Shown: positions 3,026 through 54,532 of the stretch, piece after piece | Layout of the letters: every line of letters begins with the position of its first letter | Position numbering within the stretch: the stretch's first letter is position 1 | Source of the DNA: Planctomycetota bacterium | GTDB lineage: Bacteria; Planctomycetota; SZUA-567; H5-PLA8 | DNA: 64,000 nucleotides | Direction of reading: 5' to 3' | Assembly: GCA_023150555.1 (NCBI GenBank) | Contig: JAKLKQ010000006.1 | Location: 51,726-115,725, forward strand | Translations under genes and position numbers: made by a program | The notes under the pieces: model-generated | The model's input: the letters and a program-made list of their open reading frames with translations, nothing else | Told to the model about the DNA's origin: nothing | Databases searched by the model: none

Positions 3026-3052
3026 CCCAGCCCCCTAGAGGATCAATTCGGA

Positions 3053-3064
3053 CTGACCAGTCAG
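3053..3064. promoter_or_regulatory. Candidate TetR operator palindrome CTGAC-ca-GTCAG
   Basis: A perfect 5-2-5 inverted repeat sits about 35-40 bp upstream of the TetR start, at the edge of an AT-rich 460-bp divergent intergenic region. Confidence 0.4.
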
Positions 3065-3585
3065 TTTCAAGTATTACACTCCGATTATCGTCTTGGGTCA
3101 AGAGCGTTTTTATCGATTTCCTTTCCCGCTCAGTATGAGAATGCCGCGAACCATAGTTCATTTTACAGTCATAAATCGTTTGTTTACTTGAGTTAAAATA
3201 CATAGCTAATGAACATAGAACTAGGTCGAGAAATTATTTTCACGCACGCTGGCCACCAGCTGATAGTGGTTTCTCGGGCCGAAGAGGGGGTGAAAAAAAT
3301 TTCGAGGTGCGCTGGTTCCGTTAATTTCATGCCCTCAAAGGACTTTGGACCTATTAAAATAAGAATTGATATGGCTCGGACGTAAAAAAACATTGTGCAG
3401 ATGTTGACTCCTCGCGAAACTCGGTTTTTATAGGCTGATCGGGCGCTCGAGGGCCGGGTGGAAGCTCATGTCGGAATGCATCCTACAAGGTGCATGCCTA
3501 ATAAATACTTACTTTGGGGTCTCCCATTCTGCCTCGGCGCAGGCTCCCGCTGTGGGATTTGCGCCACGCCCAAATTACGCGGAGG

Positions 3586-4467: not shown

Positions 4468-4590
4468 AAAGCATCGCAACCTGTTGTAAATAAATATGTT
4501 ATGTATGAATTTTAGCCTCGTTTTCCCACACCCTTTGGGCCCTTTCGCGCCACTGTCTTATGCAGGTGCGCTTTGCTATAAGGGCATGCC

Positions 4591-5133
4591 GTGACGACGA
4601 TGAGCCGCGACGAACTCGAAGCCCTGGTCCTGGCCCACCAGGCCGAGCTCTACCGCTACGTCCGCTACCTGGGCGCCGCCGACGCCACCGCCGCCGAGGA
4701 CCTCGTCCAGGAATCCTTCCTCGCCGCCTTCAAGAGCGAGAACGCGCCGGCCGCTTCGGAGCCCGCACGGCGCGCCGCCTGGCTGCGCGGCATCGCGCGC
4801 AACCTCTTCCTGCAGTACTGCCGCAGCCGCCGCACCAGCCCCGTGCAGGTCGATACGCAGGCGCTGGAAGCCGGCGAGCGCTTCTGGGCCGAGGACTTCC
4901 TGCGCGGCAGCGACGGCTTCGAGTACATCGAGGCCCTGCGCGGCTGCATGGAGCGCCTGGAAGAGAAGCCCCGCCGCGCGCTGGACCTCTTCTACAAGCA
5001 GAAGCTCTCGCGCACCGACGTCGCCGCGGCCTTCCAGATGACCGAGAACGGCATCAAGTCCTTCCTCCAGCGCGTCCGCGCGGCGCTGGGCGACTGCATT
5101 GAACGGCGCGTCAAGACGGAGCACGGCGGATGA
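4591..5133 (+). CDS. ECF (sigma-70 family) RNA polymerase sigma factor
   Basis: Sigma70 region 2 (ELYRYVRYL...DLVQESFL) and region 4 (ALDLFYKQKLSRTDVAAAFQMTENGIKSFLQRVR). GTG start. The stop overlaps the next gene by 4 nt. Confidence 0.85.
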   Translation: MTTMSRDELEALVLAHQAELYRYVRYLGAADATAAEDLVQESFLAAFKSENAPAASEPARRAAWLRGIARNLFLQYCRSRRTSPVQVDTQALEAGERFWAEDFLRGSDGFEYIEALRGCMERLEEKPRRALDLFYKQKLSRTDVAAAFQMTENGIKSFLQRVRAALGDCIERRVKTEHGG

Positions 5134-6512
5134 ACCGCGACGAAGCCCGCGACCGCCTCGTCGACACGCTCCTGCACGAGGCCTGCGGCGGCGAAGAGCC
5201 CCCGGATCTAAGCGCCCGCGTGCTGAGCCGCGCTTTCCCCAATCAATCCATCTTCGCGCGCGGCAAATCGAAGCGCGTCGACTGGCGCCTGTGGGGCCCG
5301 GCCTTCGGCGCCGCCGCGCTGATGGGCATCGTAGTCGGCCTGTGGCTGGTGCTGGCCAATCGCCCGGCTGCGCCCATCGTGGAGAACAATCCTCCGGAGA
5401 AGAAGGCGCCCGCGCGGCAGCCGCAGGACCGCAAACCCGCGCCGCAACCTGAAGTCGCACCGCAGCCCGAAGTCCCCGAGGTGGAGGATCCCTTCCGCCC
5501 CGGCACCATCGTGCAGACCCACGGCGAGCCCAGAAAGATCGAACTGGCCGGCTACTGCGCGCTGGAACTCATGCCCCACAGCACGCTGAAGATCGAACAG
5601 GCCAAGGGCACCGGCGACGCCCACACCACCCAGGTCGCGCTGCATGCCGGCGCCCTGGAATCGTCGGTCGAACCCGGCCAGGGCGGCTTCGCCGTCACGA
5701 CCGAACTCGGCGCCGTCGCGGTGCTGGGCACGCGCTTCATGGTCAAGCTCGCGCATACCGACGGGCCGCGCGGCGAGGGCAATCGCAAGGGCGAGGGCCG
5801 GCGCCTCGAAATCAAGGTCGCCGAAGGCAAGGTCAAACTCGACGCGCCGATGGGCGACCTCATCCTGAACACCGAACAGAAGGAAGGCGGCATCTTCACC
5901 GGCCTGCTGGTGGGGAAGGACCGCGAGAACAAGAATATCGAAGTCAAGGCCGACTACGACGACGGCGTGCTGAAGCTGGGCCCGCGCTGGATCGGCGGCA
6001 TGCCCGACGCCGGCGGCGGCCCGGACAAGGAAGCGCAGGAGCGCATCGCCAGGGTCTATCCCAGCCACCGCGTGCGCGTGCTGTGGGTGCGCGCCGAAGG
6101 CCCGCGCGTGGCCGGCGTCGAACTGCTGCCGCCCGAAGCCAAGGAAGGCACGGACGAAGGCCGCGTCACCTTTATCGGCGACGCGATGATCGAACTGCGC
6201 ACGACCGCCGGCACCTGGGAGCGCTACATGGCGCGGCAGGTGAAGGGCGACGGCGGGCGCTGGCGCCCCGATGGCGAGATCCTGCACCAGATCGAGCGCC
6301 TGAAGAAGGGCGACCGCGTACGCGTCAGTTGGAAGTACAACGAGCGCAAGCAGATCGGGCGCATCGAGATGCTCGACGGGCCGCGCGAGGGCGCGAAGGA
6401 ACGCGAGGGGCGGGACGCTCCGGTCGAACGGGAAGGCCGGGAAGGAAAGGACCGCAAGGAAGGCGACCGGCCGGCGCAGCCCGACCGCCCCAAAAAAGAT
6501 CGTGACTTCTAA
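5130..6512 (+). CDS. FecR-domain transmembrane anti-sigma factor with a C-terminal tandem-repeat domain
   Basis: Short cytoplasmic N-terminus, one TM helix (GPAFGAAALMGIVVGLWLVLA), a FecR-like segment (AVLGTRFMVKL), then two ~65-aa repeats carrying PRW-x-GG and RVRV-x-W motifs. The gene overlaps the sigma gene by ATGA. Confidence 0.75.
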   Translation: MNRDEARDRLVDTLLHEACGGEEPPDLSARVLSRAFPNQSIFARGKSKRVDWRLWGPAFGAAALMGIVVGLWLVLANRPAAPIVENNPPEKKAPARQPQDRKPAPQPEVAPQPEVPEVEDPFRPGTIVQTHGEPRKIELAGYCALELMPHSTLKIEQAKGTGDAHTTQVALHAGALESSVEPGQGGFAVTTELGAVAVLGTRFMVKLAHTDGPRGEGNRKGEGRRLEIKVAEGKVKLDAPMGDLILNTEQKEGGIFTGLLVGKDRENKNIEVKADYDDGVLKLGPRWIGGMPDAGGGPDKEAQERIARVYPSHRVRVLWVRAEGPRVAGVELLPPEAKEGTDEGRVTFIGDAMIELRTTAGTWERYMARQVKGDGGRWRPDGEILHQIERLKKGDRVRVSWKYNERKQIGRIEMLDGPREGAKEREGRDAPVEREGREGKDRKEGDRPAQPDRPKKDRDF

Positions 6513-22040: not shown

Positions 22041-22949
22041 GTGGGGTACGATCTTGCGCGGTGCACCATGGCAACCAAGAAGACGCGAAGCAACCGGCGC
22101 GCCCCGCCGCCCTCGCCCTGGCTCCGGGAATGGCAGGACGCCCTGGCCGCGTGGCCCGCGATCCAGCGCCTGGACATCATTTCCGTCGGGGACGTGTGGG
22201 GCCACGCCTTCCACACGACGCCGCGCCACGAACTGCTACACGTGCTGGAAGGCCGCGCCGAGATCCAGTTCCGCGGGCGCCTCTTTCACGTCGCCACGGG
22301 CGACACCTTCGTGATTCCCCAAGGCACGCCGCACCGCGACATCCGCCAGGCCGGCGCCGACTACCGCGTGCTGTACGTCTTCTTCGAGTGGCCCAAGGGT
22401 GCGCGGCTGCTGCGCAGGCTGAAAGGCGAGACCCTGACGCGGCTGCCGCAGGCCGCCAAGGCGCACGTTCACGCGATGATGAACGAACTCGCCGACGAGT
22501 ACCAAGGCAAGGACCAGACTGCCGTCGAGCGCATGCACCTGCTGCTGCTCGAGATCCTGCTCGCGCTGGGACGCTACGCGCAGCCGGCGCCGCCGGCCGC
22601 CAGCAACGCGCGGCGCGCCGCCGCCGAACGGCAGCGCCGCCGTCTCGCGGAAGCCGCCTGCGAATACCTGAAGGCTCACTACGCGGAAGAGATCAGTCTG
22701 GAGGCGCTGGCCGAAAGCCACGGCGTCAGCCCGTTCAACCTCTCGCGCGGGTTCAGCCAGGAGTTCGGAACCTCGCTCTTCGCCATGCTGGCGCGCATCC
22801 GCATGGACCGCGCCCGCGAGCTGCTCGCGTCCGGGCACAGCGTGAAAGAGACCGCTGCCGCCGTCGGGTATGCCAACGGCAACTACTTCGCGAAGGTCTT
22901 CCGGCGCGTGACGGGGCGCTCGCCCAGCGAGTACTTGGCCGCGCGGTGA
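22041..22949 (+). CDS. AraC-family transcriptional regulator with N-terminal cupin domain
   Basis: C-terminal double HTH (GVSPFNLSRGFSQEFGTSLFAMLARIRMDRARELL...VGYANGNYFAKVFRRVTGRSPSEY). Divergent from the DegT operon. Alternative start at 22068. Confidence 0.8.
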   Translation: MGYDLARCTMATKKTRSNRRAPPPSPWLREWQDALAAWPAIQRLDIISVGDVWGHAFHTTPRHELLHVLEGRAEIQFRGRLFHVATGDTFVIPQGTPHRDIRQAGADYRVLYVFFEWPKGARLLRRLKGETLTRLPQAAKAHVHAMMNELADEYQGKDQTAVERMHLLLLEILLALGRYAQPAPPAASNARRAAAERQRRRLAEAACEYLKAHYAEEISLEALAESHGVSPFNLSRGFSQEFGTSLFAMLARIRMDRARELLASGHSVKETAAAVGYANGNYFAKVFRRVTGRSPSEYLAAR

Positions 22950-23029
22950 AGTTGCGCGCTCCTTCTTGTAAGTCCTTATTTGAGGATCCTAGATAGGGGA
23001 CGAAATTAGTGCTAATATTAAGGCAAGCT

Positions 23030-23130
23030 ACTTTGTGCTGTGTAACATTTTGCACGTAGAGAACATGTTTATTGAAAACGAGTTATGAAGTAAATTGGAA
23101 AAATGTTTCACGTGAAACATTATGTCAATA
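23030..23130 (+). repeat. AT-rich conserved non-coding element, copy 1 (candidate sRNA or regulatory repeat)
   Basis: Bipartite: TGTGTAACATTTTGCACGTAGAG, then ~45 nt, then AAAAATGTTTCACGTGAAACAT (a perfect 18-bp palindrome). About 70% identical over ~110 nt to the minus strand of 48395-48530. Confidence 0.5.
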
Positions 23131-23159
23131 TTAGGTATATCGCGTAGGTCGCACAGGAC

Positions 23160-23765
23160 TTACTTCAACGCCTTCTCAAGGTCCTTCAGCACCTCGTACG
23201 GCCCGCGGTAACTCTTGCCCGCGAAGCTGCTGCTGAGTACCTGCCCGGTCCCATCGAGCATCTCGAGATCGGGAATGCCGTTGCCCGCGTAGCGTTCCTG
23301 CAACCCGCTGGCCTTGATCTGGTCGTGCTTCACCGCCAGCCACGGCATCTTGTACTCGTCGATGTACTCCTGCATCTTTGCGGTGTCGGCATCGGAGCTG
23401 ACGAAGACGACCTCGAAATCCTTCCCGCCGCCATGCGCATTGTAGAACTCCACCAGCTTGGGCGTGAATTGGTGGCACGGCGGGCACCAGCCCGCGCTGA
23501 AGTACAGCAGCACGAAGCGCTTGTCCTTCAACGCATCGGTCGAAATCGCCGCACCGTGGGCGTCGGCCAGCTTGCCGTCGAGCATGGAGCGCAAGCCGGC
23601 GTGGTCGCCCGTAGCCTGAGTTTGCGCGCCGGCCTGGGTCTGCGCTGCGGGATCGACCGCCTTGCTCTCGCTCGCGGGAGTGCCGACGATGGCGCGTACC
23701 CCGAGGAAGATCAGGCCCGCCGCCAGCGCGAGAAAGAAGAGCGCCCAGGAAGTCTTCATGTGCAA
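23160..23765 (-). CDS. TlpA-like thioredoxin-fold thiol-disulfide oxidoreductase (membrane-anchored or secreted)
   Basis: N-terminal hydrophobic anchor, a WCPPC active-site motif, and a thioredoxin-like fold of ~200 aa. Confidence 0.8.
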   Translation of the reverse strand: MHMKTSWALFFLALAAGLIFLGVRAIVGTPASESKAVDPAAQTQAGAQTQATGDHAGLRSMLDGKLADAHGAAISTDALKDKRFVLLYFSAGWCPPCHQFTPKLVEFYNAHGGGKDFEVVFVSSDADTAKMQEYIDEYKMPWLAVKHDQIKASGLQERYAGNGIPDLEMLDGTGQVLSSSFAGKSYRGPYEVLKDLEKALK

Positions 23766-26750: not shown

Positions 26751-28331
26751 ATGGCCGAGGAAATGCCCGTCCGCCGCAACAAGATCAACCTGAAGGACTT
26801 CGAGAAGAAGGTCCGCCTGCGCAGGCTGCGCCTGAAGGACCACGACGACATCGTGAAGCTGCAGCTCATCTGCTTCCCCACGATGCCGCCGTGGACGAAG
26901 GATCAGTTCGAAAGCATGCTCAAGCACTTCCCGCAGGGGCAGCTCTGCGTGGAGTTTAACGGCAAGATCGTCGCCTCGTCCAGCAGCCTGATCCTGGACT
27001 TCGACGAGTACCAGGACTGGCACGACTGGCGCCTGATCGCCGACAGCGGCTACATCCGCAACCACGACCCCGACGGCGACACGCTGTACGGCATCGAGAT
27101 CATGGTCGATCCCAAGTTCCGCGGCATGCGCCTGGCGCGGCGCCTGTACGAGGCCCGCAAACGCCTCTGCCGCGAGAACAACCTGCAGCGCATCGTCATC
27201 GGCGGGCGCATCCCCGGCTACAACAAGCACCGCAGCAAGATGACCGCGGAACAATACGTCGAGAAGGTCCGCAACCACGACCTGTACGACATGGTCCTGA
27301 CCACGCAGCTCGCCAACGGCTTCGCGCTGCGCAAGCTGATTCCCGAGTACCTGCCCAGCGACGAGGATTCGGCCGGCTACGCCACGCAGATGGAATGGAC
27401 CAACGCGGACTACCAGCCCGACGAGAAGGCCTGGCACGCGACGCCGCGCAGCGTGCGCATCTGCACCGTCCAGTACCAGATGCGGCCGGTGAGGAACTTC
27501 GCCGAGTTCGCGCAGCAGGTCGAGTTCTTCGTGGACGCCGCCAGCGACGACCGCGCGGACTTCGTGCTCTTCCCGGAACTCTTCACGCTGCAGCTGCTCA
27601 GCTTTACGCCGACCAAGCGCCCCGGCGAGGCCGCGCGCAAGCTCGCCGAGTTCACGCCGCAGTACATCGAACTCTTCAACCGCCTGGCCGTGAAGTACAA
27701 CGTCAACATCGTCGGCGGCAGCCACTTCACATTGGAGGACGACCACCTGCGCAACGTCGCGTACCTGTTCCGCCGCGACGGCACGCTGGGCAAGCAGGAC
27801 AAGCTTCACGTCACGCCCAGCGAGCGCAAATGGTGGGGCGTCGAAGGCGGCGATTCCATCCGCGTCTTTGGCACCGACAGCGGCAAGATCGCGATTCCGG
27901 TCTGCTACGACATCGAGTTCCCCGAGCTGATCCGCGTCGCCGTGCAGAAGGGCGCGCAGATCCTCTTCTGCCCCTTCAACACCGACAGCGAGCACGGCTA
28001 CCTGCGCATCCGCTGCTGCGCGCAGGCGCGCTGCGTCGAGAACCACGTCTACGCGGCCATCGCCGGCTGCACCGGAAACCTGCCGATGGTCGAGAACGCC
28101 GACATCCACTACGCGCAGTCCGGCATCTTCACGCCCTGCGACTACCCGTTTACGCGCGGGGGCATCGGCGCCGAATGCAACGCAAACATCGAGACCATCG
28201 TCACCCACGACGTGAACCTCGACACGCTCCGCCGCCACCGCTTCACCGGTTCCACGCGCAACTGGAACGACCGCCGCACGGACCTGTATCACGTCAGCTA
28301 CCAGGATCCCGACGGCAAACTGAAAATCTGA
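26751..28331 (+). CDS. Bifunctional GNAT N-acetyltransferase / carbon-nitrogen hydrolase (nitrilase superfamily) protein
   Basis: N-terminal GNAT fold, then a CN-hydrolase domain with a Glu-Lys-Cys triad context (FPELF ... CYDIEFPE). Confidence 0.8.
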
Positions 28332-28531
28332 ACGACAGGAAAGTGATAAAAGTTGATAGATTATAGATGAGAGATAATTGACGAACAGCTTCCCGATCGG
28401 TTCTTAATGCATCTCGATGTTCGAATCTCTCCTCTCTAATCTATTACCTCAAATCTCGAGTCCATTGTTTCGCCGGCATCGCTTGAAATCTGCCCACGTC
28501 CCGGCATCCTAGCTTTCAAAGGAGGCCCCCC

Positions 28532-32964: not shown

Positions 32965-34239
32965 TCACTTGGCTTCGTTGTACTCGATGCCCTTCTTGCC
33001 AGCCTGAGCCTTGAGCATCTTCATCACCTCGCCGTCGAAGCTCTTGTCGCCGCTGCCCTTCTTGGCCAACTCATCCTTGATGAATTCGGCGCGCTTCTTG
33101 CCCAGATCCTCGATCTTGGCCTGGATCTCCTTGCGCTCGGCGGCCTTCTTTTCCAGGAACGCCTTGCGCTCCTCTTCGCTCATCTTCTGCATCTCGTCCG
33201 GCAGTTCCTCGGCCTTGGTGTTGGCCAGCGCCTTTTCTCCGCCGGCTTCGAAAGCAGCCACCAGGTCGGCTTTGCCGACTTCGCCGCCCAGGCCCATGCC
33301 GGCCATCTCGGCCGGGGGCGCACCGCTGGGACCGGCGGCAGCGGGAGCGGCGGCGCTGGTCTTGGCGCGGAATTCGCTCTTGTCGGCGGCGACGGCCAGC
33401 TTGGCGCCGTCCCCACCCTCAGCCGCATCCTTGGCTTCGGCCTCGGCCTTGCGGGCTGCGCCGCGGGCCATTTCACGCCGCTTGGCGTCGCCGTAGTAGA
33501 CACCGGTGCCGACCAGCTTGCCGGACAACTCGGCCATCTCCTTGTCGTAGGGCGTCGCCACGACCTGCACCCCGCCGCTCTGTGCGATCGACGTGTAGCT
33601 GCCTTCGGCCTTGGCGGCGATTTCCTTCCAGGTCGTTTCGGTCTCGGCGTTGCCGCCGCAGCGGACCGTGTTGATGACGATGTCCTTCAGCACGGCGGCC
33701 TTGCAGAGTTCCGGGTACTTGGTGTCGTCGGTGTAGTCCATGTGCGGCGGCGCGTCGCCGACCAGGAAGATCACGCGGTAGACCTTCTCGCCCTTCGGCG
33801 ACCAGCCGATGCGATTGACCGCATCGCCCAGGCCCTGGTTGACGGACTCGGGCGTGTCGCCGCCGCCCTTGGCGCTGAGCGCGAAGAGCTTCTGGTGGAT
33901 CTCGTCCAGGTTCGCGGTGAGGTCCGTCACCTGCGTGACGTACTCTTCCTTCTTGTCGCGGTAGGCGACCAGGCCCACCTTCACCTCGGGCACCGGCTTG
34001 CCGCTGACGATGCCGTTGACGATGCTCCAGATCTTCTGCTGCGCGCCGGCGATCAGGCCGGACATGCTGCCGGTGGTGTCGATCACAAAGACGACCTCGA
34101 CGCGCGCGCGGGCGGCCGGTGCGTCGGGTTTCTTGCCGCCGTCGGCCAGCAGGTCTGCGGCGGATGCGGTGAAGGTGCAGAAGGCAGCGAGCGCCAAAAG
34201 CGCGGCCAGCTTGGGAAGGGTCTTCGTCTTCGCGTACAT
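32965..34239 (-). CDS. Secreted von Willebrand factor type A (vWA) domain protein with a Lys/Glu/Ala-rich helical C-terminus
   Basis: Signal peptide, plus a MIDAS motif VVFVIDTTGSMSG with downstream T and D residues. Confidence 0.75.
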   Translation of the reverse strand: MYAKTKTLPKLAALLALAAFCTFTASAADLLADGGKKPDAPAARARVEVVFVIDTTGSMSGLIAGAQQKIWSIVNGIVSGKPVPEVKVGLVAYRDKKEEYVTQVTDLTANLDEIHQKLFALSAKGGGDTPESVNQGLGDAVNRIGWSPKGEKVYRVIFLVGDAPPHMDYTDDTKYPELCKAAVLKDIVINTVRCGGNAETETTWKEIAAKAEGSYTSIAQSGGVQVVATPYDKEMAELSGKLVGTGVYYGDAKRREMARGAARKAEAEAKDAAEGGDGAKLAVAADKSEFRAKTSAAAPAAAGPSGAPPAEMAGMGLGGEVGKADLVAAFEAGGEKALANTKAEELPDEMQKMSEEERKAFLEKKAAERKEIQAKIEDLGKKRAEFIKDELAKKGSGDKSFDGEVMKMLKAQAGKKGIEYNEAK

Positions 34240-34265
34240 CGTGGGATCTCCTCGTTCGGTTCCGG

Positions 34266-36839
34266 TTACTTGGCCTTCGGTGCGCCGGCGTCGCCGGTCT
34301 TGGCCGGTTCGATCTGGTACGCCTGGCCATCGACGACGACCAGGATGGTGCCGCCCAGCGCCATGACTGCGCCGAGCTTCGGATTCTTGGTCAGGAGCTG
34401 GAAGTACTCCTTGCTGAAGGTCTCGATCTTCTTCGGCTCGGCCTTCTCGTCGTGCTTGAACGTCGAGTCGATCCAGACGCCGTGGCGCAGGTAGAAGGTG
34501 TGCCCGGCGGCGTGCTTGATGGTCAGTTCCTGCGCGACGGCGACTGCGTCGGCCATTTCTTCGGCCTTTTCGCCGTTCTCGGCACCGGGCTCGCCGGCCG
34601 GTCCGAAGTTTCCGTTGCCGCCGGCCAGGAAGGCCTGGTTGCGCAGGCGGCGCGCGGCCTCGGCGTTCTTGTCCCTCTTCCCGTCGGCAGCCAATTCGAG
34701 CCCCGCATCGGCGTTGGGGTCGATGCTCTTGGCTTCCTTGAAGCGCTCCTCGAACTCGCTCAGGCCCACCGCCACGCCGCCGGACTGTCTGGTCTGCGCA
34801 GCCTGGGCGGCCATCTTCGCCACGTCCTTGGCTTCGCCTTCGGCGTCGGACATGGCCTTGGTGGCTTCTTCCGGTTTGGCAGCCGGGGCGGCGGCGGCAA
34901 GGCGATCGGCCATGTCCTTGCGCAAGGCCTCCCTGCGTTCCGCGCCCTTCAGGTTCGCGCGGTCGTCGCCGCGAAAGTGTCCGCCGCCCAGCATGATGCC
35001 GGGCTGCATGCCGGGTTCGAGCACCAACTGGCTGGTATAAGGCGTCACGATGCCGTGCTGCTGGCTCAGGGCGACGATCTCGTCGATGGTCTCCTTGTTG
35101 GCGCCGTGCAGGCGCACGTCTTCAAGCAGGTGGCCGATCTTGCGCATGGCCCAGACGCGCGGCAGGAAGGCGTTGTCGGTCTCCTTGTCGGGCCAGGCGA
35201 CGCTGACGCTGATGGTGCGCTGTTCGCCGCCGATGTAGCCGGTAAGCGTGACGGGGCCCGAGCCGGCGCCCTTGTAGCGGCCGAAGGCAAGGATCTCGCT
35301 GCCCTTGAACAACGCCGGGATACGGCGCGGATACATGCTGTGCGCGCGGGCGTCCGGGCCGAAGTCGAAGGCCAGGTCGGTCATGACCGGGTTCTTGATC
35401 TTGCCGTAGAAGTCGCTGAGCTTCAGCTCCAGGTCTTCCTTCATCGCGACGTAGCTGCTGGCGCCGTCGTAGTCGGCAGCGATCTTGTCGAGCAGGTGCG
35501 TGTTGACGTCGGTGCCGACGCCGAAGTTGAAGATGCGCGCGCCGTGCGCGTTGGCGCCGGCGACGTCCTTCAGGATCTCCGGGATGTCGGTGATGCCGAC
35601 GCTGGGCAGGCCGTCGGTGAGGAAGATGACGAGCTTGGCCTTGCCCTTGCCTTCGGAGAAGTCGTTGGCGAGCGCCTCGCGCAGGGCGCCGTCGATGTTC
35701 GTGCCGCCGGTGGCTTCCAGCAATTCGACGGCCTTGATCGCCTTGCCGACGTTCTCTTTGGTCGCATCGAGCAGTTTCTGCGGGCTGAGCGTGCGGACGT
35801 CGGTGGAGAACGTGACGAGGTTGAAGCGGTCCTTCTCATTGAGCTGCCCCAGGCAGAAGGTAAGGGCCTTCTGCGCCTGGACCATTTTGTTCTCCTGCAA
35901 CATGCTGCCGCTGGTGTCGAGGACGAAGACGATCTCCTTGGGCAGGATGCGCGCCTTGGCCAGCTCGTCGTCGGGGCGGCCCACGAGCATGAAATAGCCG
36001 TCCTCGTCGGAGTTCGGGCGGTGCGCGATCACGCGCAGCGCGACGTCTTCGGTGCTGGGCGCGTAGTACAGGTTGAAGTCGCGATCGCTGGACAGGTTCG
36101 CCTGCGACAGTTTCACCACCGCGGTGTGCTCGTCGGGGCGCGTCACCGTGACGGTGTGGCTGGGGCTGTAGACCGGACCGATGCTGTCCTTGCTGCGGAT
36201 CACGCACTCGAAGCTGAACGACTCGAGGCCCGCCGGGTACAGCTGGCTGCCGGCCAGGATGTGGCGGAAGTCGTAGAGGCCGTTGACCGGCGCGAGCACG
36301 GTGTCGTAAGTGAACTTCAGGCGCCGCTCCTCGTTCGGCGGCACGGGGAAGATGCGCGCTTCGTACAGGTTCTCGCCGACGAAGCGCAGCAGCGCCGGGT
36401 CCCGGCGCTGCTGGACGATCGAGGTATAGATGCGTTCGGCTTCCTCGGCGGTGTGCAGGTTGCCGGTGACCATCGTGTCGTTCATCGAGAGCGCCGACTT
36501 GTTGATCGTCGCGCCCTTGGGCAGTGGGATCATCACGCGCACTTCCAGATTGCCGCCGGTCAGGTTCAAAAAGCTCTGCTCGATGGTGGTGCTCGCGACG
36601 TTCTCCTGGATGCGCACGTCCACGCGGCTGCTCGTCACGCGGAAGGGCAGGTCGCCGGGCTGCGGCGGGCGAATGGGGCGCCAGCCGGGCGGCATCGGCG
36701 CAATCGCCGCGACCTTTGCGACCGCTTCGTCCCTTTCGACGGGCACCAGCAGCCCCGACGCGTGCGCCGGGCCGGTGACCGCCAGCGCCAGGAGCGTGAT
36801 CGCCGAAAGAACCAGGAACTCGAATCGTCCGAACTTCAT
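34266..36839 (-). CDS. Secreted VIT (vault protein inter-alpha-trypsin) + vWA domain protein
   Basis: Signal peptide MKFGRFEFLVLSAITLLALAVTGPAHA, an N-terminal VIT-like domain, and a vWA MIDAS motif IVFVLDTSGSM. About 857 aa. Confidence 0.75.
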   Translation of the reverse strand: MKFGRFEFLVLSAITLLALAVTGPAHASGLLVPVERDEAVAKVAAIAPMPPGWRPIRPPQPGDLPFRVTSSRVDVRIQENVASTTIEQSFLNLTGGNLEVRVMIPLPKGATINKSALSMNDTMVTGNLHTAEEAERIYTSIVQQRRDPALLRFVGENLYEARIFPVPPNEERRLKFTYDTVLAPVNGLYDFRHILAGSQLYPAGLESFSFECVIRSKDSIGPVYSPSHTVTVTRPDEHTAVVKLSQANLSSDRDFNLYYAPSTEDVALRVIAHRPNSDEDGYFMLVGRPDDELAKARILPKEIVFVLDTSGSMLQENKMVQAQKALTFCLGQLNEKDRFNLVTFSTDVRTLSPQKLLDATKENVGKAIKAVELLEATGGTNIDGALREALANDFSEGKGKAKLVIFLTDGLPSVGITDIPEILKDVAGANAHGARIFNFGVGTDVNTHLLDKIAADYDGASSYVAMKEDLELKLSDFYGKIKNPVMTDLAFDFGPDARAHSMYPRRIPALFKGSEILAFGRYKGAGSGPVTLTGYIGGEQRTISVSVAWPDKETDNAFLPRVWAMRKIGHLLEDVRLHGANKETIDEIVALSQQHGIVTPYTSQLVLEPGMQPGIMLGGGHFRGDDRANLKGAERREALRKDMADRLAAAAPAAKPEEATKAMSDAEGEAKDVAKMAAQAAQTRQSGGVAVGLSEFEERFKEAKSIDPNADAGLELAADGKRDKNAEAARRLRNQAFLAGGNGNFGPAGEPGAENGEKAEEMADAVAVAQELTIKHAAGHTFYLRHGVWIDSTFKHDEKAEPKKIETFSKEYFQLLTKNPKLGAVMALGGTILVVVDGQAYQIEPAKTGDAGAPKAK

Positions 36840-37771
36840 GATGGATACCTCCAGGTCTCGTGCCGTCTTCTTCGCCCGATTCGACGCGATCCGTGCGTGG
36901 CGGTTTCGGTGAATCCCGGAATTCACGGAGACTACGTACACAAAGGAGGCGCGTGCTATTTAGTAGTGTATTAGGATATGGAATCCACCGGGACTAGGTC
37001 GCACTTCTCATGTAACTTGTTTATAGTAAATTACTTATAGTACCAGGCTCTGCCGGTTCGCCGAAAAGTCCACGCCTTTCGCCGACAATCCCAGCCATCC
37101 CCCGTTCGAGCTTGACCGGCCGATGCTACAAACGGAATGCCGGCTGAGCCGACGTCAGAAAGAAGGGAGAAAAGCCCGTGACAAACGCGCATGCGCGCCT
37201 TGGCCTTGCCTTGGCGATTCTCACGTTGTCCGCCGCGGCGAACTCGAACTCGGCGAAGACATAAAGGAAGGACGCTGGGTCGTCGCCGAACGCCACGAGA
37301 AGGCGCCGGTGGACGGCGTGCTGCAGACCCGCTTGAGGTGCATGCTTGTCGTGCGGACCGAGTCCGGCCACCTGAAGCCCATCCCGAACGCGGAGATCGA
37401 TCACGTCCGCTTGATCTATCCGAACGACGTGATGGTCGAGACCGCGCGCGTCCGAAGCTCTTCGGCGAGCGCCGTAGGTCCTCACAAATCTCCGAATTGT
37501 CATCCTTGCGCCGGAACGCATTCCGGCCTCTAAAGGCACCGGTTTTGCCTTGAAACAGCACTGCGCATGGCGCAATTTTTCTCGCTTCCGGGGCGCACAA
37601 TGTGCTTTCCCCGCAAATGCAGCTTTCGAGCGAATTTCACGTCCGTTTAGAGGGACCGGAAGGAACTTTGGTGTAAGAACAGAGTGTATAAAACGTTGCT
37701 AATAGAGAGGTTGCCTTCGCGTCGAAAGTCCGGCTTGTCAGCCCGAAAGCCGCAGCATTAGGAGCCGCACC

Positions 37772-43283: not shown

Positions 43284-46200
43284 CTACTTGCCGCTTAACG
43301 CCTTGGCTTTCTTCGCAAGGTCGATGAACTCGGCGCGCTGGCCTTCCGCGTCGGCGCCCTTGCTCTCGCCGGCCAGCTCCAGCACGAAGTCCCAGTTCAA
43401 ATTCTTCGCGTAGACGCTGCCGCGCAGCAGCATGCCGAAGGCGGCGACCGAGGACGCGAAGCGGAAGTCCGGGCTGCTCTGTTCGAGCTTCTTTCCGCCG
43501 TCGCGCACCGGGACGCTCAGTTCCGTGCTCTTGTCTTCCTCGGGCTGCTTGTAGCGCAGCCACACGGTCAGCAGCTCGCCGCTGGTCTTCGCGTCTTCCT
43601 TGACCTTGGCTTCCTCGAGGTACCGCGACGCGCGTTCGGCGGGCGCCTTGGGCGCGGCCAGCTCGGCAAGTTTGACGGTGCGCTTGACCGTCGTCTTGAT
43701 CACGTTCGCGTCGGCGACGGCGCTGACTTCGAACTCGTACTCGCCGTCGGCCGTGGGCAGGAAGTACGCGTTCGGGCGGTCGGCGTCGCGCAGGTCGGCC
43801 TTGGGGCCGCCCGTCTGCTTCCAGATGAAGGTCAGCTTCGCGACTTCTTCGGGCTTGGCGTTCAGCAGCAGCACGTCCAGAGGCACGCGCACGGGCTGCA
43901 CGGCTTCCTCGGTGCCGGCTGGAATCACCTCATACAGCGCGGTGACGGCGTGGCCCGCGCCGATCTCGCCGGCGTCCTTCGTGTCGTCGGCGAAGTCTTC
44001 CTTGCGCATCAGGCGGTTCTCGTAGCCGATCAGGCGGTAACTGTGCGCCGTCGCGGGATTGAATTCGACCTGCACCTTCACGTCCTTGGCGATGGTCACC
44101 AGCGTGCCGGCCAGCTCCTGCCCGAAGACCTTCTTCGCTTCCTGGAACGAGTCGATGTACGCGTAATGGCCGTTGCCCTTGTCGGCGATGGCTTCGAGCT
44201 TGTCGTCCTTATAGTTGCCCATGCCGAAGCCGAGCACGCTCAGGAAGACACCGCTCTTGGCCTGTTTCTCGATCAGCTTCACCAGTTCGTCGTTGCTGGT
44301 GGTGCCGACGTTGAAGTCGCCGTCGGTGCAGAGGATCACGCGGTTGGTGCCGCCGGCAATGTGGTTCTTCGCCGCGATCGCGTAGGCCTTCTGGATTCCG
44401 TCGCCGCCATTGGTGCTGCCGCCGGCGTTCAGCGCGTTGATGCGTTCGAGGATGCGGCGCTTCTGGTCGCAGGGCGTGCTCTCCAGCTCGACCTTGATCG
44501 TGTCGCTGTAGGTCACGATGGCAACGCGGTCGCGGGCGTTGAGGTTGTCGACGAGCAGGTTCAGGCCCTGGCGCACGAGGTCCAGCTTGTTCGCGTCGCC
44601 CATCGAGCCGCTGACGTCGACGAGGAAGACCAGGTTGCTGCTGGGTCGGCTGTTCGGATCGATCTCGCGGCCCTTCAAGGCGATGCGTACCAGGCGGTGC
44701 GCGGCGTTCCACGGGCAGGTGGCGACCTCGATGTGCGTGGCGAAGGGCTCCTTCGCGTCGCTGGGCGGCGGCTCGTACGCATAGCGGAAGTAGTTGATCA
44801 ACTCCTCGTAGCGCACCGCGCCGAGCGGCGGAAGCTGGTTGTCGTTTAGCCAGCGGCGCACGTTCGAGTACGACGCGGTGTCCACGTCGATGGAGAAGGT
44901 GCTGATCGTGCGGGCCTTCTCGAAGGGATTCTCGTTCACCACCGCGTAGGATTCGGTCTGGCGGCCTTCGTCGGGGTGCGGTGCAACGTAGCCCATGCGC
45001 CCGTGGTCGAACTCGCCGTCGACGCCCAGCAGCGCGAGGCCGCCGTCCTTGAACGCGCCGCCGATGCGGTAGTCGTCAAGGGAGCTCATCATATCGCTGA
45101 AGCGCCCGCCGATGCGCGTGAGGCGCCACCTGTCGTTGTTTTGTCCGCGCGCGGGATCCGCCGCGTTGAAGTGCCAGATGACCATCCCGCCGGGCGCTTC
45201 CGGTGCGGGCGTTGCAGGCGAGCGAGCGCCGGACCATTCGCCGCGGGTCCACAGTCCGCGCGTCGAGCCGCGGTCGGCCCAGAGGTTGTCGGTCAAGCGG
45301 TAGCCGGTGGCGACGTAGAAATCGCTAACAGCGGAAATTTCTTCGAGCACGCCAGCCGGATGATACGCGCGGAACTGGTCGGCCCAGTGCTGCTGCGTCG
45401 AACGGTATCCGGTGTCGAAGTTGAATCCTTGAAAATTGAAGTCGTGATGCGGGGTGACGCCGTGGTACTGCGCGTAGGCGTCTTCAATCGAAACCTTTGA
45501 CACCGAAAGGAAGTAATCTGGCGACGGCAGACCGTGAAGCGAATGAGGAACGATCTCTTGGTGCCGCGAACTACCGCGCGTATTACGCCAAGCATCTTCC
45601 TTGCTCATCAGTCCATAGGCGACGGCCCAATTGGCGTTGTTGATATCACGCGCATTGTACCAGCGGTCGCGGATGCCTTCCTCGCCGATGATCACGCTGT
45701 CGGCGATTCGTTTCTGCGTCTCCATATCAAACCTAAGCTGCCCGCGGCGGATGGCGAAGCCGTCGTTGTCTTCCTGCGGGGCATACACATCGTTGAGATT
45801 GATGCCGCTGTCCCGCGAAATGCCTACGGCAACGTTGTCGTTCTGGATGGTGTAGAACCACGTCTGCACCAGCCCGCCCATGGTGAGCTTGCCTTCTTTC
45901 GTCGTCACGCCGGCGTTGGGGCCATACTTGTCCTCGACGACAGTGTCAGCGGAGCCGATGGACGCAACGGCAGGAGCGTTCGTCTTCTGTTCTTTGGCCA
46001 ATTGCTCGCGCAGCTGCCTTAAATCTTCGCGAAGCTGCCTGATCTCTGCGGTCTCCGAGTTTTCGCCACCTTGTATTGTTGGGGCCTTTTTTACCGTCTC
46101 TTTCTTCTGTGCAATCTGGCCTTCAAGCTTCGCGATTTCGGTCTTGATTATCCCCTCGGGACTCGTGATTTCCCAGACCGGAAAGCCCTTTTCGAGGATG

Positions 46201-47618
46201 CCGGGCTTCGGCGCGTCGGTCGTCTTCTTCGTCTCCGCGATCTCGGCCTCGGGCTTCGCGTCGGCGGTGGCCGTCGAGTCTGCAAGCGGCGGGCCCGGTC
46301 GGCGCGAAGCATCGCCGTAGCGAATGCCAAGATCCAGTTGTCTGAAGCTACCGTCGGACCTGGACGCCACTTCGCGCGAAAGACCTTGGATCAATTGGGG
46401 ATGCTCTGCCCAACGGTACCAACCACTGGCAATTGCGGCCTCCGTGCGCTCCGGGGGAGGCGGCGGTCCTGGCGAATACGTCAGCTCAGGCGAGGCCGGA
46501 TGATACGGCGCAACCGGATCCGCTTCTTCCTCCAGCCGCTCCTTACCCAATTCTTCGTTCATCAGGTGCCAGGTGCCTTCGATGGTGTTCGGCGAACTGT
46601 TAATCTGAAGATCAACCGCATCCTCGGTCCTGTATTTCTCCGGCGCCCAAGCGAGCGACGTCTGAAGCCGCTCCTCGCCGATCTTCAGATTCTCGTCCGT
46701 AACTCGGTCGACTTCTTCGAGAAGCTCGGAGATCTTTTGGTTGTGGCGCTGGATTACCGCGGCGCGCGGCGCGACGGCAGTCTCCATGTTCACTTCCGCG
46801 CCCATCCAGCCCGCACCGCTACTGGTCCCGCCTGAACTGGACGTGGCGCTGCCGCTGCCCGGCTGGGCGTCTGCGGCATCCGTTACAGAGGCAATAAAGG
46901 CCCCCAGCTTCTCATGCTGCACACTCAGGTTCTCCTGGACGTCGGCCGACAAATTCGCATCGTTGTGTACGCCGTCGATAGTGATGCCGTTGCCCGCCTT
47001 GAACTTCCCGATCTGAAATTCGAGCGCGGTGTCCAGGTCCAAAGTATTCGACGCGGCCTGGTCTTGCGCCGGCGTCGGCATGTCCACCGCAACGGACGAG
47101 GACGGACTCATCTGTCCGTACGAAGCCACCAGCAGGCCCACCAGCACGGAGATGACCAGCGTCGCGGCGACGGCGCCGAGCGCGAAGTAGCGCCGGAAGG
47201 GTGACGGCGCGGGCCGCGTGGCTTCCCGCGCGCGGCGCCCGCTGCCGGCGGCGGCGTGCGGTTTTTCCGATACGGTGCTTACGGTTTGTGTAGGAGCTTC
47301 GTCCTCGAATGCGGCGGCCATGAGGGCTTCGGCGCTCAGAGCACTGGCTAGCCGGCCGCCTTTCACCGAGGAGGACTCCGTGGCGCCCAGCCCAACGCAG
47401 AGCGTTTCGCCCGTCGCGCGCAGGTCTTCGACGTACTGGCGCAGTTCGGGGTCGCGCGCGATCGCTCCGGCGATGGCCGCGATGCTTTCCTCGTCGAGCG
47501 CCTCGAGTTCGCCCAGCGCGTAGGCGGTGACGCGCGGGTCGTCCCGCCAGCCGCCGTTCGCGGCTTCGGCGCCGTTCTTCCAGGCGATCGTTTCGTTGTT
47601 CTGGTCGTGCTCGCTCAT
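43284..47618 (-). CDS. Giant anti-sigma-factor::YfbK-type vWA fusion protein (1444 aa)
   Basis: N-terminal anti-sigma-like cytoplasmic domain (RVTAYALGELEALDEESIAAIAGAIARDPELRQYVEDL), one TM helix, a large periplasmic region, and a C-terminal vWA (LVFLVDVSGSMGD) + DUF3520-like module as in YfbK. It starts 27 bp after the ECF sigma gene. Confidence 0.75.
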   Translation of the reverse strand: MSEHDQNNETIAWKNGAEAANGGWRDDPRVTAYALGELEALDEESIAAIAGAIARDPELRQYVEDLRATGETLCVGLGATESSSVKGGRLASALSAEALMAAAFEDEAPTQTVSTVSEKPHAAAGSGRRAREATRPAPSPFRRYFALGAVAATLVISVLVGLLVASYGQMSPSSSVAVDMPTPAQDQAASNTLDLDTALEFQIGKFKAGNGITIDGVHNDANLSADVQENLSVQHEKLGAFIASVTDAADAQPGSGSATSSSGGTSSGAGWMGAEVNMETAVAPRAAVIQRHNQKISELLEEVDRVTDENLKIGEERLQTSLAWAPEKYRTEDAVDLQINSSPNTIEGTWHLMNEELGKERLEEEADPVAPYHPASPELTYSPGPPPPPERTEAAIASGWYRWAEHPQLIQGLSREVASRSDGSFRQLDLGIRYGDASRRPGPPLADSTATADAKPEAEIAETKKTTDAPKPGILEKGFPVWEITSPEGIIKTEIAKLEGQIAQKKETVKKAPTIQGGENSETAEIRQLREDLRQLREQLAKEQKTNAPAVASIGSADTVVEDKYGPNAGVTTKEGKLTMGGLVQTWFYTIQNDNVAVGISRDSGINLNDVYAPQEDNDGFAIRRGQLRFDMETQKRIADSVIIGEEGIRDRWYNARDINNANWAVAYGLMSKEDAWRNTRGSSRHQEIVPHSLHGLPSPDYFLSVSKVSIEDAYAQYHGVTPHHDFNFQGFNFDTGYRSTQQHWADQFRAYHPAGVLEEISAVSDFYVATGYRLTDNLWADRGSTRGLWTRGEWSGARSPATPAPEAPGGMVIWHFNAADPARGQNNDRWRLTRIGGRFSDMMSSLDDYRIGGAFKDGGLALLGVDGEFDHGRMGYVAPHPDEGRQTESYAVVNENPFEKARTISTFSIDVDTASYSNVRRWLNDNQLPPLGAVRYEELINYFRYAYEPPPSDAKEPFATHIEVATCPWNAAHRLVRIALKGREIDPNSRPSSNLVFLVDVSGSMGDANKLDLVRQGLNLLVDNLNARDRVAIVTYSDTIKVELESTPCDQKRRILERINALNAGGSTNGGDGIQKAYAIAAKNHIAGGTNRVILCTDGDFNVGTTSNDELVKLIEKQAKSGVFLSVLGFGMGNYKDDKLEAIADKGNGHYAYIDSFQEAKKVFGQELAGTLVTIAKDVKVQVEFNPATAHSYRLIGYENRLMRKEDFADDTKDAGEIGAGHAVTALYEVIPAGTEEAVQPVRVPLDVLLLNAKPEEVAKLTFIWKQTGGPKADLRDADRPNAYFLPTADGEYEFEVSAVADANVIKTTVKRTVKLAELAAPKAPAERASRYLEEAKVKEDAKTSGELLTVWLRYKQPEEDKSTELSVPVRDGGKKLEQSSPDFRFASSVAAFGMLLRGSVYAKNLNWDFVLELAGESKGADAEGQRAEFIDLAKKAKALSGK

Positions 47619-47645
47619 CGTCTTGCTCCGGCTTTCGGCGCCTGC

Positions 47646-48266
47646 TTACGCGCGCGCCGCGTTGCTCTCTCCGTCCTCCGCTACGCGCCGCGCTGCCATG
47701 CGTCCCGAATTATCCGTCGAATTCGCATCGAAATTCGCCGCTTCCTTCGCGCCGTCCGCCTTCATTTCCGTGCGCATCGCCTGCATGGCCTTGTGAAGGA
47801 GGAAGCCGACGTTGGTGACGCTGCGCCCGGTGACGCGCGCGATCTCGCGGTAGCTCAGGCCGTGCTGGAACTTCAGCCGCACCACTTCCTGCTGCAGCGC
47901 AGGCAATTTGACGAGCGCCTCGCGCATGCGCGCGCCGTCTTCGCGGTGCTCGGCGAGGGCGTTCGGTTCGGGCGTGAGGGCTTCCTTCTGCGCGAGCGCC
48001 ACTGAGGCGCTGCGCAGCCGGCGGTCCTTGCGGTGGGCGTCGATGGCGCGGCTGCGGCAGACGGTGTAGAGGCGTTCGCGGAGGTTGCCGTTCAGCGAAC
48101 CGGGGTCCTGGCGGCAGAGCCAGAGGAAGGTCTCCTGCACGGCGTCGCGCGCGCGGTCGGGATCGCCGGTCAGGCGCTGGGCGTAGTGCTCCAGCGGCCC
48201 CCCGAAGCGTTCGAGGGCCTCGCCGACCCAGCGGGTCGCATCGGCCTGGCTATCCACCGCGCTCAT
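47646..48266 (-). CDS. ECF RNA polymerase sigma factor
   Basis: Sigma70 region 2 (ERFGGPLEHYAQRLTGDPDRARDAVQETFLWL) and region 4 (LQQEVVRLKFQHGLSYREIARVTGRSVTNVGFLLHKAM). The track ORF extends to 48320. Confidence 0.8.
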   Translation of the reverse strand: MSAVDSQADATRWVGEALERFGGPLEHYAQRLTGDPDRARDAVQETFLWLCRQDPGSLNGNLRERLYTVCRSRAIDAHRKDRRLRSASVALAQKEALTPEPNALAEHREDGARMREALVKLPALQQEVVRLKFQHGLSYREIARVTGRSVTNVGFLLHKAMQAMRTEMKADGAKEAANFDANSTDNSGRMAARRVAEDGESNAARA

Positions 48267-48394
48267 TTCGATTCGCTCGGGCTCCGCTCCCCTGCGCCCG
48301 CCACCGCTTTCGCCCCCCACTACGGATGAGAGCGACTTTTCTTAGCGCCTCCGGACCGAATTCCGAGAATTCCGGCGTCGCGAAAGGCTTGCCA

Positions 48395-48530
48395 TGGCCT
48401 GTTCCGGAACCCTAATGAGAGTCTAATAGTTCACGTGAAACTTTTTTGCGATTATCTGCATAACGCCTTTACAGAAAAGGACTGCTCTGTGTGCAAAGCG
48501 TTACACTGCACGAAGTAGGCTAGGGAATTG
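48395..48530 (-). repeat. AT-rich conserved non-coding element, copy 2 (homolog of 23030-23130)
   Basis: The minus strand reads CTTCGTGCAGTGTAACGCTTTGCACACAGAG ... AAAAAAGTTTCACGTGAACTATT, collinear with copy 1. It lies between the dciA-like gene and the ECF sigma gene, next to a GTTCCGGAAC palindrome. Confidence 0.5.
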
Positions 48531-48551
48531 TTATCCTTACTCCGGTAACGG

Positions 48552-48878
48552 TTACGCGTCGCCGCTCGCCAGCTTTACGCGGACCTCGCGCACGGCCAAC
48601 CCGGCGGCGCGGAAGGCGTCGAGCAGTTCTTGGCGGCGGTAGCCTTCGAGTTCCTGAAAGAGCGCCGCGCTGTCGGCTTCGACGGTCACGACGCCGGTCT
48701 TGACACTCAGCACGTCGGCGTGCGGCGCGAGTTTCTCGCCGAGGATCTCGGCGAGGACCTTGCGCGCGAGGCGGCGGCCCTGGAGCTGGCGCTTGCCCAG
48801 GCCTTCCTTGCGCACGACGCCCTTAAGGATGTCGCCGAGGCCCTGCGCGGGAGCGGGTTTCTTGCGTTCGCTGGCCAT
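48552..48878 (-). CDS. dciA: DUF721 / DciA-like small protein
   Basis: About 108 aa with GLGDILKG...LAPHADVLSVKTGVVTVEADSAALFQELEGYRRQELLDAF, matching the DUF721 pattern. Same operon as dnaN. The upstream Arg-rich part of the 48552..49307 track ORF is rejected. Confidence 0.55.
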   Translation of the reverse strand: MASERKKPAPAQGLGDILKGVVRKEGLGKRQLQGRRLARKVLAEILGEKLAPHADVLSVKTGVVTVEADSAALFQELEGYRRQELLDAFRAAGLAVREVRVKLASGDA

Positions 48879-53112: not shown

Positions 53113-53181
53113 GACGGCAGCGTTTAGCTATCGGCTTTCAGCTAAAACAACGGCTCAGTTGTCAATTGTCATCTACAGGTG

Positions 53182-54490: not shown

Positions 54491-54514
54491 GGCCGGTTCT
54501 CCTATCAACTGCAT

Positions 54515-54532
54515 TGATACTACTTTTAATCA
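54515..54532. promoter_or_regulatory. LysR-type box TGAT-N10-ATCA in the divergent promoter region
   Basis: An inverted-repeat T-N11-A motif 25 bp upstream of the LysR start, inside an AT-rich 127-bp divergent region. Confidence 0.4.

Follow-up and report, generated by a model that had tools for sequence, protein, structure and literature searches.

Centromeres of the ParB family have been described as palindromes of 16 bp, whose 5' end is T-rich and whose 6-bp core, with CG at its centre, consists of two C, two G, one A and one T (PMC5450999). On chromosomes, parS is the centromere site to which ParB attaches so that daughter chromosomes are drawn apart. The consensus sequence of chromosomal parS is TGTTNCACGTGAAACA in Bacillus subtilis, with an identical 16-mer in Hyphomonas (PMC7022226, Table 1), and is likewise given in PMC5450999. 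Canonical ParB reads positions 1 and 6 of the half-site (PMC7383237), and parS sites are normally origin-proximal (PMC7333895). Here we describe an AT-rich module, two copies of which occur in a stretch of 64,000 nt from a Planctomycetota bacterium (contig JAKLKQ010000006.1, positions 51,726 to 115,725; the whole stretch is called the window). Copy 1 contains an exact match to parS and copy 2 a degenerate one, and in related organisms the same palindrome varies with dyad symmetry inside a frame of fixed length.

The module and its palindrome

A search of the window with nhmmer, using copy 1 as the query, yielded copy 2 at E = 1.7e-11, and the reverse search gave E = 1.5e-08. Besides a self-match of the palindrome nothing was found at E < 0.03, i.e., there is no third copy in the 64 kb, and further copies were also absent from 186 kb of sequence, which comprised the window and the related loci. 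In one ungapped register 77 of 112 bases are identical (72% across the first 97 nt), and the copies are collinear, gap-free paralogs of 65–72% identity. Their GC contents are 31% (copy 1) and 41% (copy 2), compared with 66% for the window; the GC content at third codon positions (GC3) of the host genome is about 0.9. The original prediction, that two collinear islands of about 70% identity are strikingly AT-rich, was thus borne out. The homology of the proposed element of about 110 nt also held, and the block proved to be somewhat longer (Table 1), its boundaries being set by invariant alignment columns with the relatives included. Judging from these alignments, both AT-rich stretches are true copies of one non-coding module of about 130 bases.

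The palindrome of copy 1, for which a perfect CACGTG-centred length of 18 bp had been proposed, is perfect across 20 bp (AATGTTTCACGTGAAACATT, 23102–23121), and the parS 16-mer is its core. In a palindrome scan of the window, no other perfect palindrome whose arms reached 8 was AT-rich. The parS pattern with up to three mismatches matched twice in the window, namely in copy 1 and in copy 2, against 0.04 matches expected in the window, and all parS-like palindromes in the 186 kb fall inside the module. Judged by sequence, copy 1 thus has a palindrome of a familiar class, which corresponds to the definition of parS, and ParB binding at 23104–23119 is predicted from the exact match. The explanation to which we incline, with modest confidence, is a paralogous, lineage-specific, AT-rich and length-locked DNA module of about 130 bp, whose dyad-symmetric box is a predicted binding site of a ParB-family protein; copy 1 would then be a perfect chromosomal parS and copy 2 a decayed parS with one good half-site. 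A repeated protein-binding module had been named originally as an alternative, and it is this alternative which gains support from the canonical parS and from the dyad-symmetric variation in the relatives described below.

The most conserved part of the module, more so than the palindrome, is a core of 36 nt, of which no further copy was found in the window. The core includes the inverted repeat CTAC..GTGCA-N11-TGCAC..GTAG, and the short motifs TTAT and TTAGG stand at fixed distances from the palindrome. An everted half-parS within the core (GTGTAACATTTTGCAC, 23040–23055), which agreed with a circularly permuted parS at 13 of 16 positions, was considered and rejected: copy 2 has five mismatches, and the idea is post hoc and the match, with 0.09 expected in the window, may be due to chance.

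Conservation and turnover in relatives

To find relatives, the proteins encoded next to the module (sigma, AraC and redoxin) served as queries, and the contigs of the matches were then looked up; all of them are short metagenomic contigs. The site of copy 1 (locus 1) was obtained from L008/L009, L019/L020, L021, L022 and L023, the site of copy 2 (locus 2) from L003/L004, L005/L006 and L007. The latter retain the gene order dnaN–WD40–dciA–module–sigma–vWA. The module occupies both loci in uncultured planctomycete relatives, with the exception of one lineage (L010–L014), the contigs of which end within a locus-1 copy that appears to be partly deleted or rearranged. These five contigs stem from five samples, represent one relative and end 68–96 nt past the AraC stop codon (...TTTGCACGTAGC); the contig of L023 ends exactly at the CTACTT of the core. 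Repeated k-mers, i.e., further copies, could account for such breaks, as could differences between strains or a coverage that is low where the DNA is AT-rich.

Over about 130 columns the alignment of 9–10 sequences, paralogs and orthologs included, contains not a single gap, whereas the adjacent leader of the sigma gene (151 columns) has 13 gap columns in four sequences and the flanks of locus 1 contain several indels. The invariant columns form clusters (runs test, P = 0.0012). Identities within the module are 0.57–0.70 between paralogs and 0.71–0.83 between orthologs. More distant neighbourhoods, which were recognized by a sigma homolog of 49% and an AraC homolog of 57% identity, contained neither module nor parS. 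Two degenerate patterns of the core had no match in 185,579 species-representative genomes, a scan of viral contigs was negative, and blastn against 72,556 plasmids gave no match; one pattern was applied to JGI metagenomes and returned only two chance matches on eukaryote-like contigs with 39% GC. As far as can be judged from these searches, the module is lineage-specific; it corresponds to none of the RNA families, repeat families or plasmid centromeres described so far.

Three types of palindrome can be distinguished. Type A, with a CACGTG core, is TGTTTCACGTGAAACA; it is perfect at locus 1 of the window, has three mismatches at locus 2 of the window and one mismatch at locus 2 of L005 (TGTTTCACGTAAAACA). 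Type B, with an AGCGCT core (TGTTTAGCGCTAAACA), is perfect at locus 2 of L003 and L007, and locus 1 of L019 (TGTTTAGAGCCAAACA) represents type B with two mismatches. Type C, with a GTCGAC core (TGTTCGTCGACGAACA), is perfect at locus 1 of L008, L021, L022 and L023. Between the types three interior pairs change symmetrically, the outer arms TGTT/AACA are kept, and the central CG is present in eight of nine sequences. A search of the literature for the two variant palindromes produced unrelated primer matches only. All three cores agree with the published description of ParB-family centromeres; the criterion is loose, and the agreement is weak evidence, because half of the CG-centred palindromic hexamers satisfy the rule of core composition. 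The half-site of type B, TTTAGC, is also that of the KorB operator, TTTAGC(C/G)GCTAAA.

The covariation in the palindrome was matched by none of 500 shuffles. It extends to the pair beside the central CG (AU:3, GC:3, UA:3), which could not pair in a hairpin, as only 2 nt would be left for the loop. The covariation of this pair thus points to a duplex site which is read by a dimer, or to palindrome-templated mutation, and not to the symmetry of an RNA stem. Palindrome-templated mutation is known as quasipalindrome correction.

The sequence of copy 1 is a mosaic. In the middle block it is equally far from its own orthologs (16–19 of 32 positions) and from copy 2; in the palindrome block it is nearer to the sequences of locus 2 (23–24 of 28) than to its own orthologs (19–20 of 28); and at the 3' end it resembles locus 1 (11–14 of 16) as opposed to locus 2 (6–7 of 16). 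This pattern suggests that the central block of copy 1 was replaced by recombination with another copy. No sampled locus would be a perfect donor, which hints at more copies elsewhere in the genome. The same two samples yielded L003/L004 and L008/L009, and L005/L006 and L019/L020 likewise share samples; if the pairs which share samples each represent one organism, single genomes would carry different types of palindrome at their two loci.

Genomic context, proposed function and alternatives

Gene neighbourhoods were defined by Pfam scans of the approximately 40 open reading frames (ORFs) of the window (Table 1). The original prediction had placed copy 1 between two convergent gene ends and copy 2 ahead of an extracytoplasmic function (ECF) sigma gene, and both placements agree with the annotation: copy 1 is flanked by an AraC-family and a thioredoxin-like gene, copy 2 lies between the dciA stop codon and the conserved leader of the sigma gene. 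The redoxin protein is MCK6470979.1 (100% identity), from a metagenome-assembled genome labelled "Planctomycetota bacterium". Since a terminator-like hairpin overlaps the stop codon of the AraC-family gene, copy 1 probably lies outside its transcript and 3' untranslated region. Right after this hairpin the motif TTCTTGTAAGTCCTTATT (22963–22980) is found, which is near-invariant in all orthologs of locus 1 and absent at locus 2.

Table 1. Coordinates of the module, its parts and neighbouring features in the 64-kb window.
Feature	Position	Strand	Basis and remarks
parS match TGTTTCACGTGAAACA, 16/16	23104–23119		Pattern search and palindrome scan; predicted ParB loading site
Decayed parS AGTTTCACGTGAACTA (- strand), 13/16	48427–48442		Pattern search; ortholog alignment; half-site GTTTCAC intact
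Module copy 1, about 130 nt, AT-rich	23007–23135	+	Homology to copy 2; gap-free alignment with L008, L019, L021, L022, L023
Module copy 2	48411–48539	-	Homology to copy 1; orthologs L003/L004, L005/L006, L007
36-nt core, copy 1: CTACTTnGTGCnnnGTAACnnnnTGCACnnAGnGnA	23028–23063	+	Invariant columns in 9–10 sequences
36-nt core, copy 2: CTACTTCGTGCAGTGTAACGCTTTGCACACAGAGCA	48483–48518	-	Alignment with copy 1 and orthologs
30-codon ORF MFHVKHFSNLLHNSFSINMFSTCKMLHSTK, doubtful	23028–23120	-	ATG in palindrome arm; stop is the CTA of CTACTT
Terminator-like GC hairpin with T-rich tail	22940–22958	+	Terminator scan; overlaps stop codon of AraC-family gene
AraC-family gene	22041–22949	+	Pfam; 3' end converges on copy 1
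Thioredoxin-like/redoxin gene	23160–23765	-	Pfam; 3' end converges on copy 1
dciA	48552–48875	-	Pfam; adjoins copy 2
ECF sigma gene	ATG at 48265	-	Pfam; followed by a 1444-aa vWA/YfbK_C protein
dnaN	50039–51187	-	Pfam; with a WD40 gene, immediately upstream of dciA

The genes dnaN and dciA and a conserved perfect DnaA box are located 25–28 kb from copy 1 and 0–3 kb from copy 2. The DnaA box (TTATCCACA, 51283–51291, - strand) is situated in an intergenic region of 615 nt upstream of dnaN and is also perfect in two relatives (L003, L005). The dnaN/dciA region is probably origin-proximal. The module itself was considered as oriC and rejected, with a cluster of DnaA boxes absent and the copies 25 kb apart.

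Some further features of the surroundings may be mentioned. The leader between copy 2 and the start of the ECF sigma gene (48266–48410, - strand) is GC-richer, has a mean ortholog identity of 0.84 (module, 0.78) and contains the near-palindrome CCGGAATTC-TCG-GAATTCGG; a promoter that serves the sigma gene itself, or a 5' untranslated region with structure, may be located there. The sigma gene and the gene for the large vWA/YfbK_C protein (together 43284–48265) are also kept as a pair in a distant 7-Mb genome (L015). Other vWA/YfbK_C or VIT-vWA proteins, with no adjacent sigma gene identified, are encoded at 60675–63812 and 32965–36959, and a second pair, of an ECF sigma and a FecR-like protein, at 4582–6512. 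Six other AT-rich intergenic islands of 40–46% GC (3035–3442, 28299–28473, 36920–37727, 51190–51294, 53123–53309 and 54482–54588) contain neither motifs of the module nor a parS-like palindrome.

For the proposed ParB module the following sequence of events may be envisaged. A ParB dimer would recognize the palindrome of copy 1 on double-stranded DNA, and copy 2 weakly or as a half-site; it would bind CTP, close into a clamp and slide onto the flanking DNA. Repeated loading would build a partition complex near dnaN/dciA, which would be moved by ParA and would load SMC, and in this way the dnaN/dciA-proximal part of the chromosome would be organized and segregated. The underlying biology of the ParB CTP clamp and of partition is taken from PMC7053999 and PMC7333895. 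For the remainder of the module, too, an action as DNA is the most likely one: the 36-nt core and the spaced motifs could be sites for a partner protein, a weak promoter which is occluded by ParB, or both. Analogous cases would be KorB, which loads at its operator OB and is locked by KorA at a neighbouring operator (PMC11790492), or the ParB-dependent regulation next to parS which has been described in Streptococcus pneumoniae (PMC4488948).

Several observations weigh against a ParB module. Copy 2 has three mismatches to parS, and neither parA nor parB was found by Pfam among the ORFs of the window. At locus 1 the canonical parS is restricted to the present genome and is not found in L008, L019, L021, L022 and L023; the closest relative at this locus, L023, whose thioredoxin-like protein is 94% identical, and three further lineages have type C, so that the canonical site at locus 1 would be derived. 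Types B and C differ at position 6 of the half-site and should thus be bound poorly by a standard ParB. The function of parS leaves the higher conservation of the 36-nt core, compared to the palindrome, unexplained. Four-fold degenerate sites of the neighbouring genes show identities of 0.74–0.91, and the module orthologs are not higher; since the overall rate is no proof of selection, constraint is argued from the lack of indels, the clustered invariant columns and the persistent low GC content. No cluster of DnaA boxes, no dnaA and no clear turn of the GC skew were present in the 64 kb, and with an ambiguous GC skew and a single DnaA box the proximity of the locus to the origin is unproven.

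Searches for signals of transcription gave the following results. A consensus scan revealed no sigma-70 promoter at either copy, and a terminator scan found only the hairpin at the AraC stop codon and a weak hairpin inside copy 2; neither a promoter of the sigma-70 type nor an intrinsic terminator bounds the element. A scan of the alignment with position weight matrices indicated two weak sigma-70-like arrangements (mean, 3.0 bits), which are aligned in nine sequences: in one, TTGnnn/TCGnnn-N17-CATTAT/CATTAG, the palindrome exactly fills the spacer, and the putative -10 hexamer of locus 2 ends in G; the other is TTGTnn-N16-GATAAT-like. By eye, several further candidates were considered and rejected, namely a sigma-54 promoter (GG absent, spacing short), an ECF-type promoter (AAC...CGT with wrong or non-conserved spacing), a XerCD dif site, an IHF consensus, which a single ortholog contained, and terminal inverted repeats, which in copy 2 do not have the same pairing partner as in copy 1.

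Among the alternatives, two assign a gene to the reverse strand. The 30-codon ORF had rightly been distrusted in the original prediction, although it lies on the strand opposite to the one quoted there. That it is a protein gene (consensus MF..KHF.N.LHN.F...DCP.CK.LHCTK), with the palindrome as an operator or a translational hairpin over the start codon and with copy 2 as a decaying paralog, appears quite unlikely to us. Seven of nine distinct sequences have the frame open, and they share its start and stop (column-shuffle P = 0.025); GC3 is higher than the values at the first and second codon positions by 0.235 (P = 0.004), as expected of a high-GC coding sequence; synonymous third-position changes occur in the core (K24 AAA/AAG, T29 ACA/ACG/ACC, H27 CAC/CAT); pN/pS between orthologs is 0.33–0.77; and the lack of indels is compatible with coding. 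However, variable columns are spread evenly over the codon positions, as claimed originally and now obtained with ten sequences (18/17/17), and the synonymous fraction is that of the shuffled null (0.18 vs 0.17, P = 0.39), whereby all statistics on the ORF, like those on the RNA helices below, rest on few independent substitutions. The rare AT-ending codons TTA, CAT, CCT and AAA are invariant despite the high GC3, which argues for constraint at the nucleotide level. Three of the four copies at locus 2 are disrupted. Copy 2 lacks the ATG in its counterpart (48426–48518, + strand), in accordance with the original prediction, and two orthologs, which are conserved as much as the rest, have an in-frame TAA at codon 10. 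Putative Cys/His ligands are lost in copies at locus 1, the gap-free block reaches past the ORF on both sides, no Pfam match was obtained, 1.84 billion representative proteins contained one spurious repeat-protein match only, and the peptides had no exact record in a collection of 15 billion. A transcript of about 100 nt, i.e., a small RNA or a tiny mRNA from the - strand of copy 1 and the + strand of copy 2, seems unlikely as well. The palindrome would form its 5' hairpin and CCUAC-GUGCA-[11 nt]-UGCAC-NAA-GUAGG its 3' hairpin, and RNAalifold recovered both on the reverse strand; the outer part of the core helix is paired to 92.5% on this strand, through G.U pairs, and to 73% on the forward strand, an asymmetry expected of RNA and not of DNA; in copy 1 the element follows the co-oriented thioredoxin-like gene at a distance of 39 nt; and a -10-like TAATAT stands about 7 nt before the ATG of the palindrome in all orthologs of locus 1. 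The asymmetry stems, however, from two or three transitions and is within the shuffled controls (137/500). The inner helix never varies and is hence uninformative, the helix of this second hairpin is either unchanged or altered on one side only and surpasses its shuffles on neither strand, the 3' hairpin has no U-tract, a conserved -35 hexamer is missing, and the copies at locus 2 have no -10-like hexamer. When the entire element is folded, its energies mostly do not surpass those of shuffled sequences, no Rfam family corresponds, and the covariation beside the central CG is inexplicable by a hairpin.

An independent small RNA on the strand quoted, which the original prediction preferred, or a selfish REP- or MITE-like repeat without function for the host, is in our opinion highly improbable. 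Two diverged copies in unrelated intergenic contexts would suit such an element, as would the short-read contigs of one relative, which break repeatedly in it or at its edge, as is usual at repeats, and the mosaic pattern with its suggestion of exchange with another copy. For the RNA no support was obtained: Rfam gave no matches at gathering thresholds in the whole window and none at E ≤ 10 with both copies, neither tRNA nor tmRNA was detected, folding z-scores of the forward strand (-0.17, 0.14, -2.71, -1.84, 0.17, -0.70) were unremarkable in four of six sequences, its consensus fold of -15.0 kcal/mol had a covariation term of -0.39, no covariation was seen outside the palindrome, and promoter and terminator are missing. 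Against a repeat stand the failure to see terminal inverted repeats or target duplications common to both copies, the occupancy of both loci in all sampled relatives save the rearranged lineage, with no clean empty site, the identity of only 57–70% between paralogs and the absence of copies from the 185,579 genomes and the plasmid and viral sets. A promoter/operator cassette for the neighbouring genes, in which the palindrome would be the operator of a dimeric factor other than ParB and GTGCA-N11-TGCAC a second operator, is very unlikely; it could draw on the two aligned sigma-70-like arrangements and on the position of copy 2 upstream of an ECF sigma gene, which needs a promoter. Yet copy 1 faces a convergent 3' end, where a forward promoter would yield antisense RNA only; the consensus scan found no promoter, and the arrangements are weak, with a -10 hexamer of locus 2 that ends in G; of an ordinary factor a single operator sequence would be expected, but the interior is not the same at the two loci or among close relatives; and the exact 16/16 identity to parS would be a coincidence. 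The proposed ParB module may also be extended, as a tentative possibility, to a composite centromere or regulatory cassette, in which a swappable palindrome of the ParB family and a conserved partner site would keep a constant distance. Its types of specificity, three or more in number, would have been exchanged between copies by gene conversion and would differ between very close species.

Relation to known systems

Chromosomal parS is treated as a near-invariant marker of 16 bp from Firmicutes to Proteobacteria, and changes of specificity in the ParB family have mostly been studied by mutagenesis (ParB vs Noc) or by comparison of replicons. Established biology accounts for the palindrome of copy 1; what would surprise a specialist in segregation is the conserved frame with a switching palindrome. 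If the ParB module is real, one orthologous locus in a set of closely related planctomycetes has a canonical parS in a single species, whereas neighbouring species have palindromes there which are symmetric and parS-like but not canonical, within the same rigid frame, which would provide a testable natural system for the turnover of centromeres and would make chromosomal parS part of a larger composite module. A composite cassette would imply several ParB-like proteins of distinct specificity on one chromosome, or an unusually fast co-evolution of ParB and parS in an uncultured clade of planctomycetes, and would offer a natural series of intermediates in the switching of centromere specificity. 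Should ParB bind to copy 1 alone, with drift and palindrome-templated mutation accounting for everything else, the finding amounts to an ordinary annotation of parS. Planctomycetes divide unusually, many of them without FtsZ, and their segregation machinery is of interest for this reason.

ERIC and Correia elements are intergenic repeats of about 130 bp with inverted repeats, which occur in tens to hundreds of near-identical copies. Length, inverted repeats and unrelated intergenic contexts are similar here; the known elements, however, have terminal inverted repeats and show polymorphism of presence and absence, whereas the two copies here are diverged and stable at orthologous loci. In the parS of plasmid P1, ParB boxes are combined with an IHF site at fixed spacing. 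Centromeres of the P1/F type thus resemble the module as strictly spaced assemblies of several motifs, but there is no sequence similarity, a conserved IHF-like consensus is missing here, and the context is chromosomal. In the KorB-OB/KorA-OA system of plasmid RK2 a loading palindrome of the ParB family is likewise accompanied by a nearby second operator, and the half-site TTTAGC is shared with TGTTTAGCGCTAAACA; OB comprises 13 bp, one of which is a central base, and in the type found here 12 bp lie between the same ends. Homologs of KorA or KorB, a plasmid context and a match among the 72,556 plasmids were not seen, and the likeness concerns a possible way of working, not membership of the family.

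The Bsr-type centromeres of secondary replicons in Burkholderiales, where each variant of parS has its own ParB, share the format of the palindrome, and the three cores found here fit them. Bsr variants mark different replicons in one cell and have several identical copies each; unlike these, the variants described here are found at two loci of the chromosome, which are separated by 25 kb, and replace one another from species to species. To chromosomal parS (consensus tGTTNCACGTGAAACa) copy 1 corresponds at 16 of 16 positions, as a palindrome and within about 28 kb of dnaN/dciA. Small numbers of copies, such as the two in 64 kb here, of which one is degenerate, are found there as well, with two sites in Hyphomonas and ten in B. 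subtilis. The site described here differs in being enclosed by an indel-free module of about 130 bp, the flanking core of which is more conserved, and while chromosomal parS is usually regarded as invariant, relatives carry AGCGCT or GTCGAC cores at orthologous loci.

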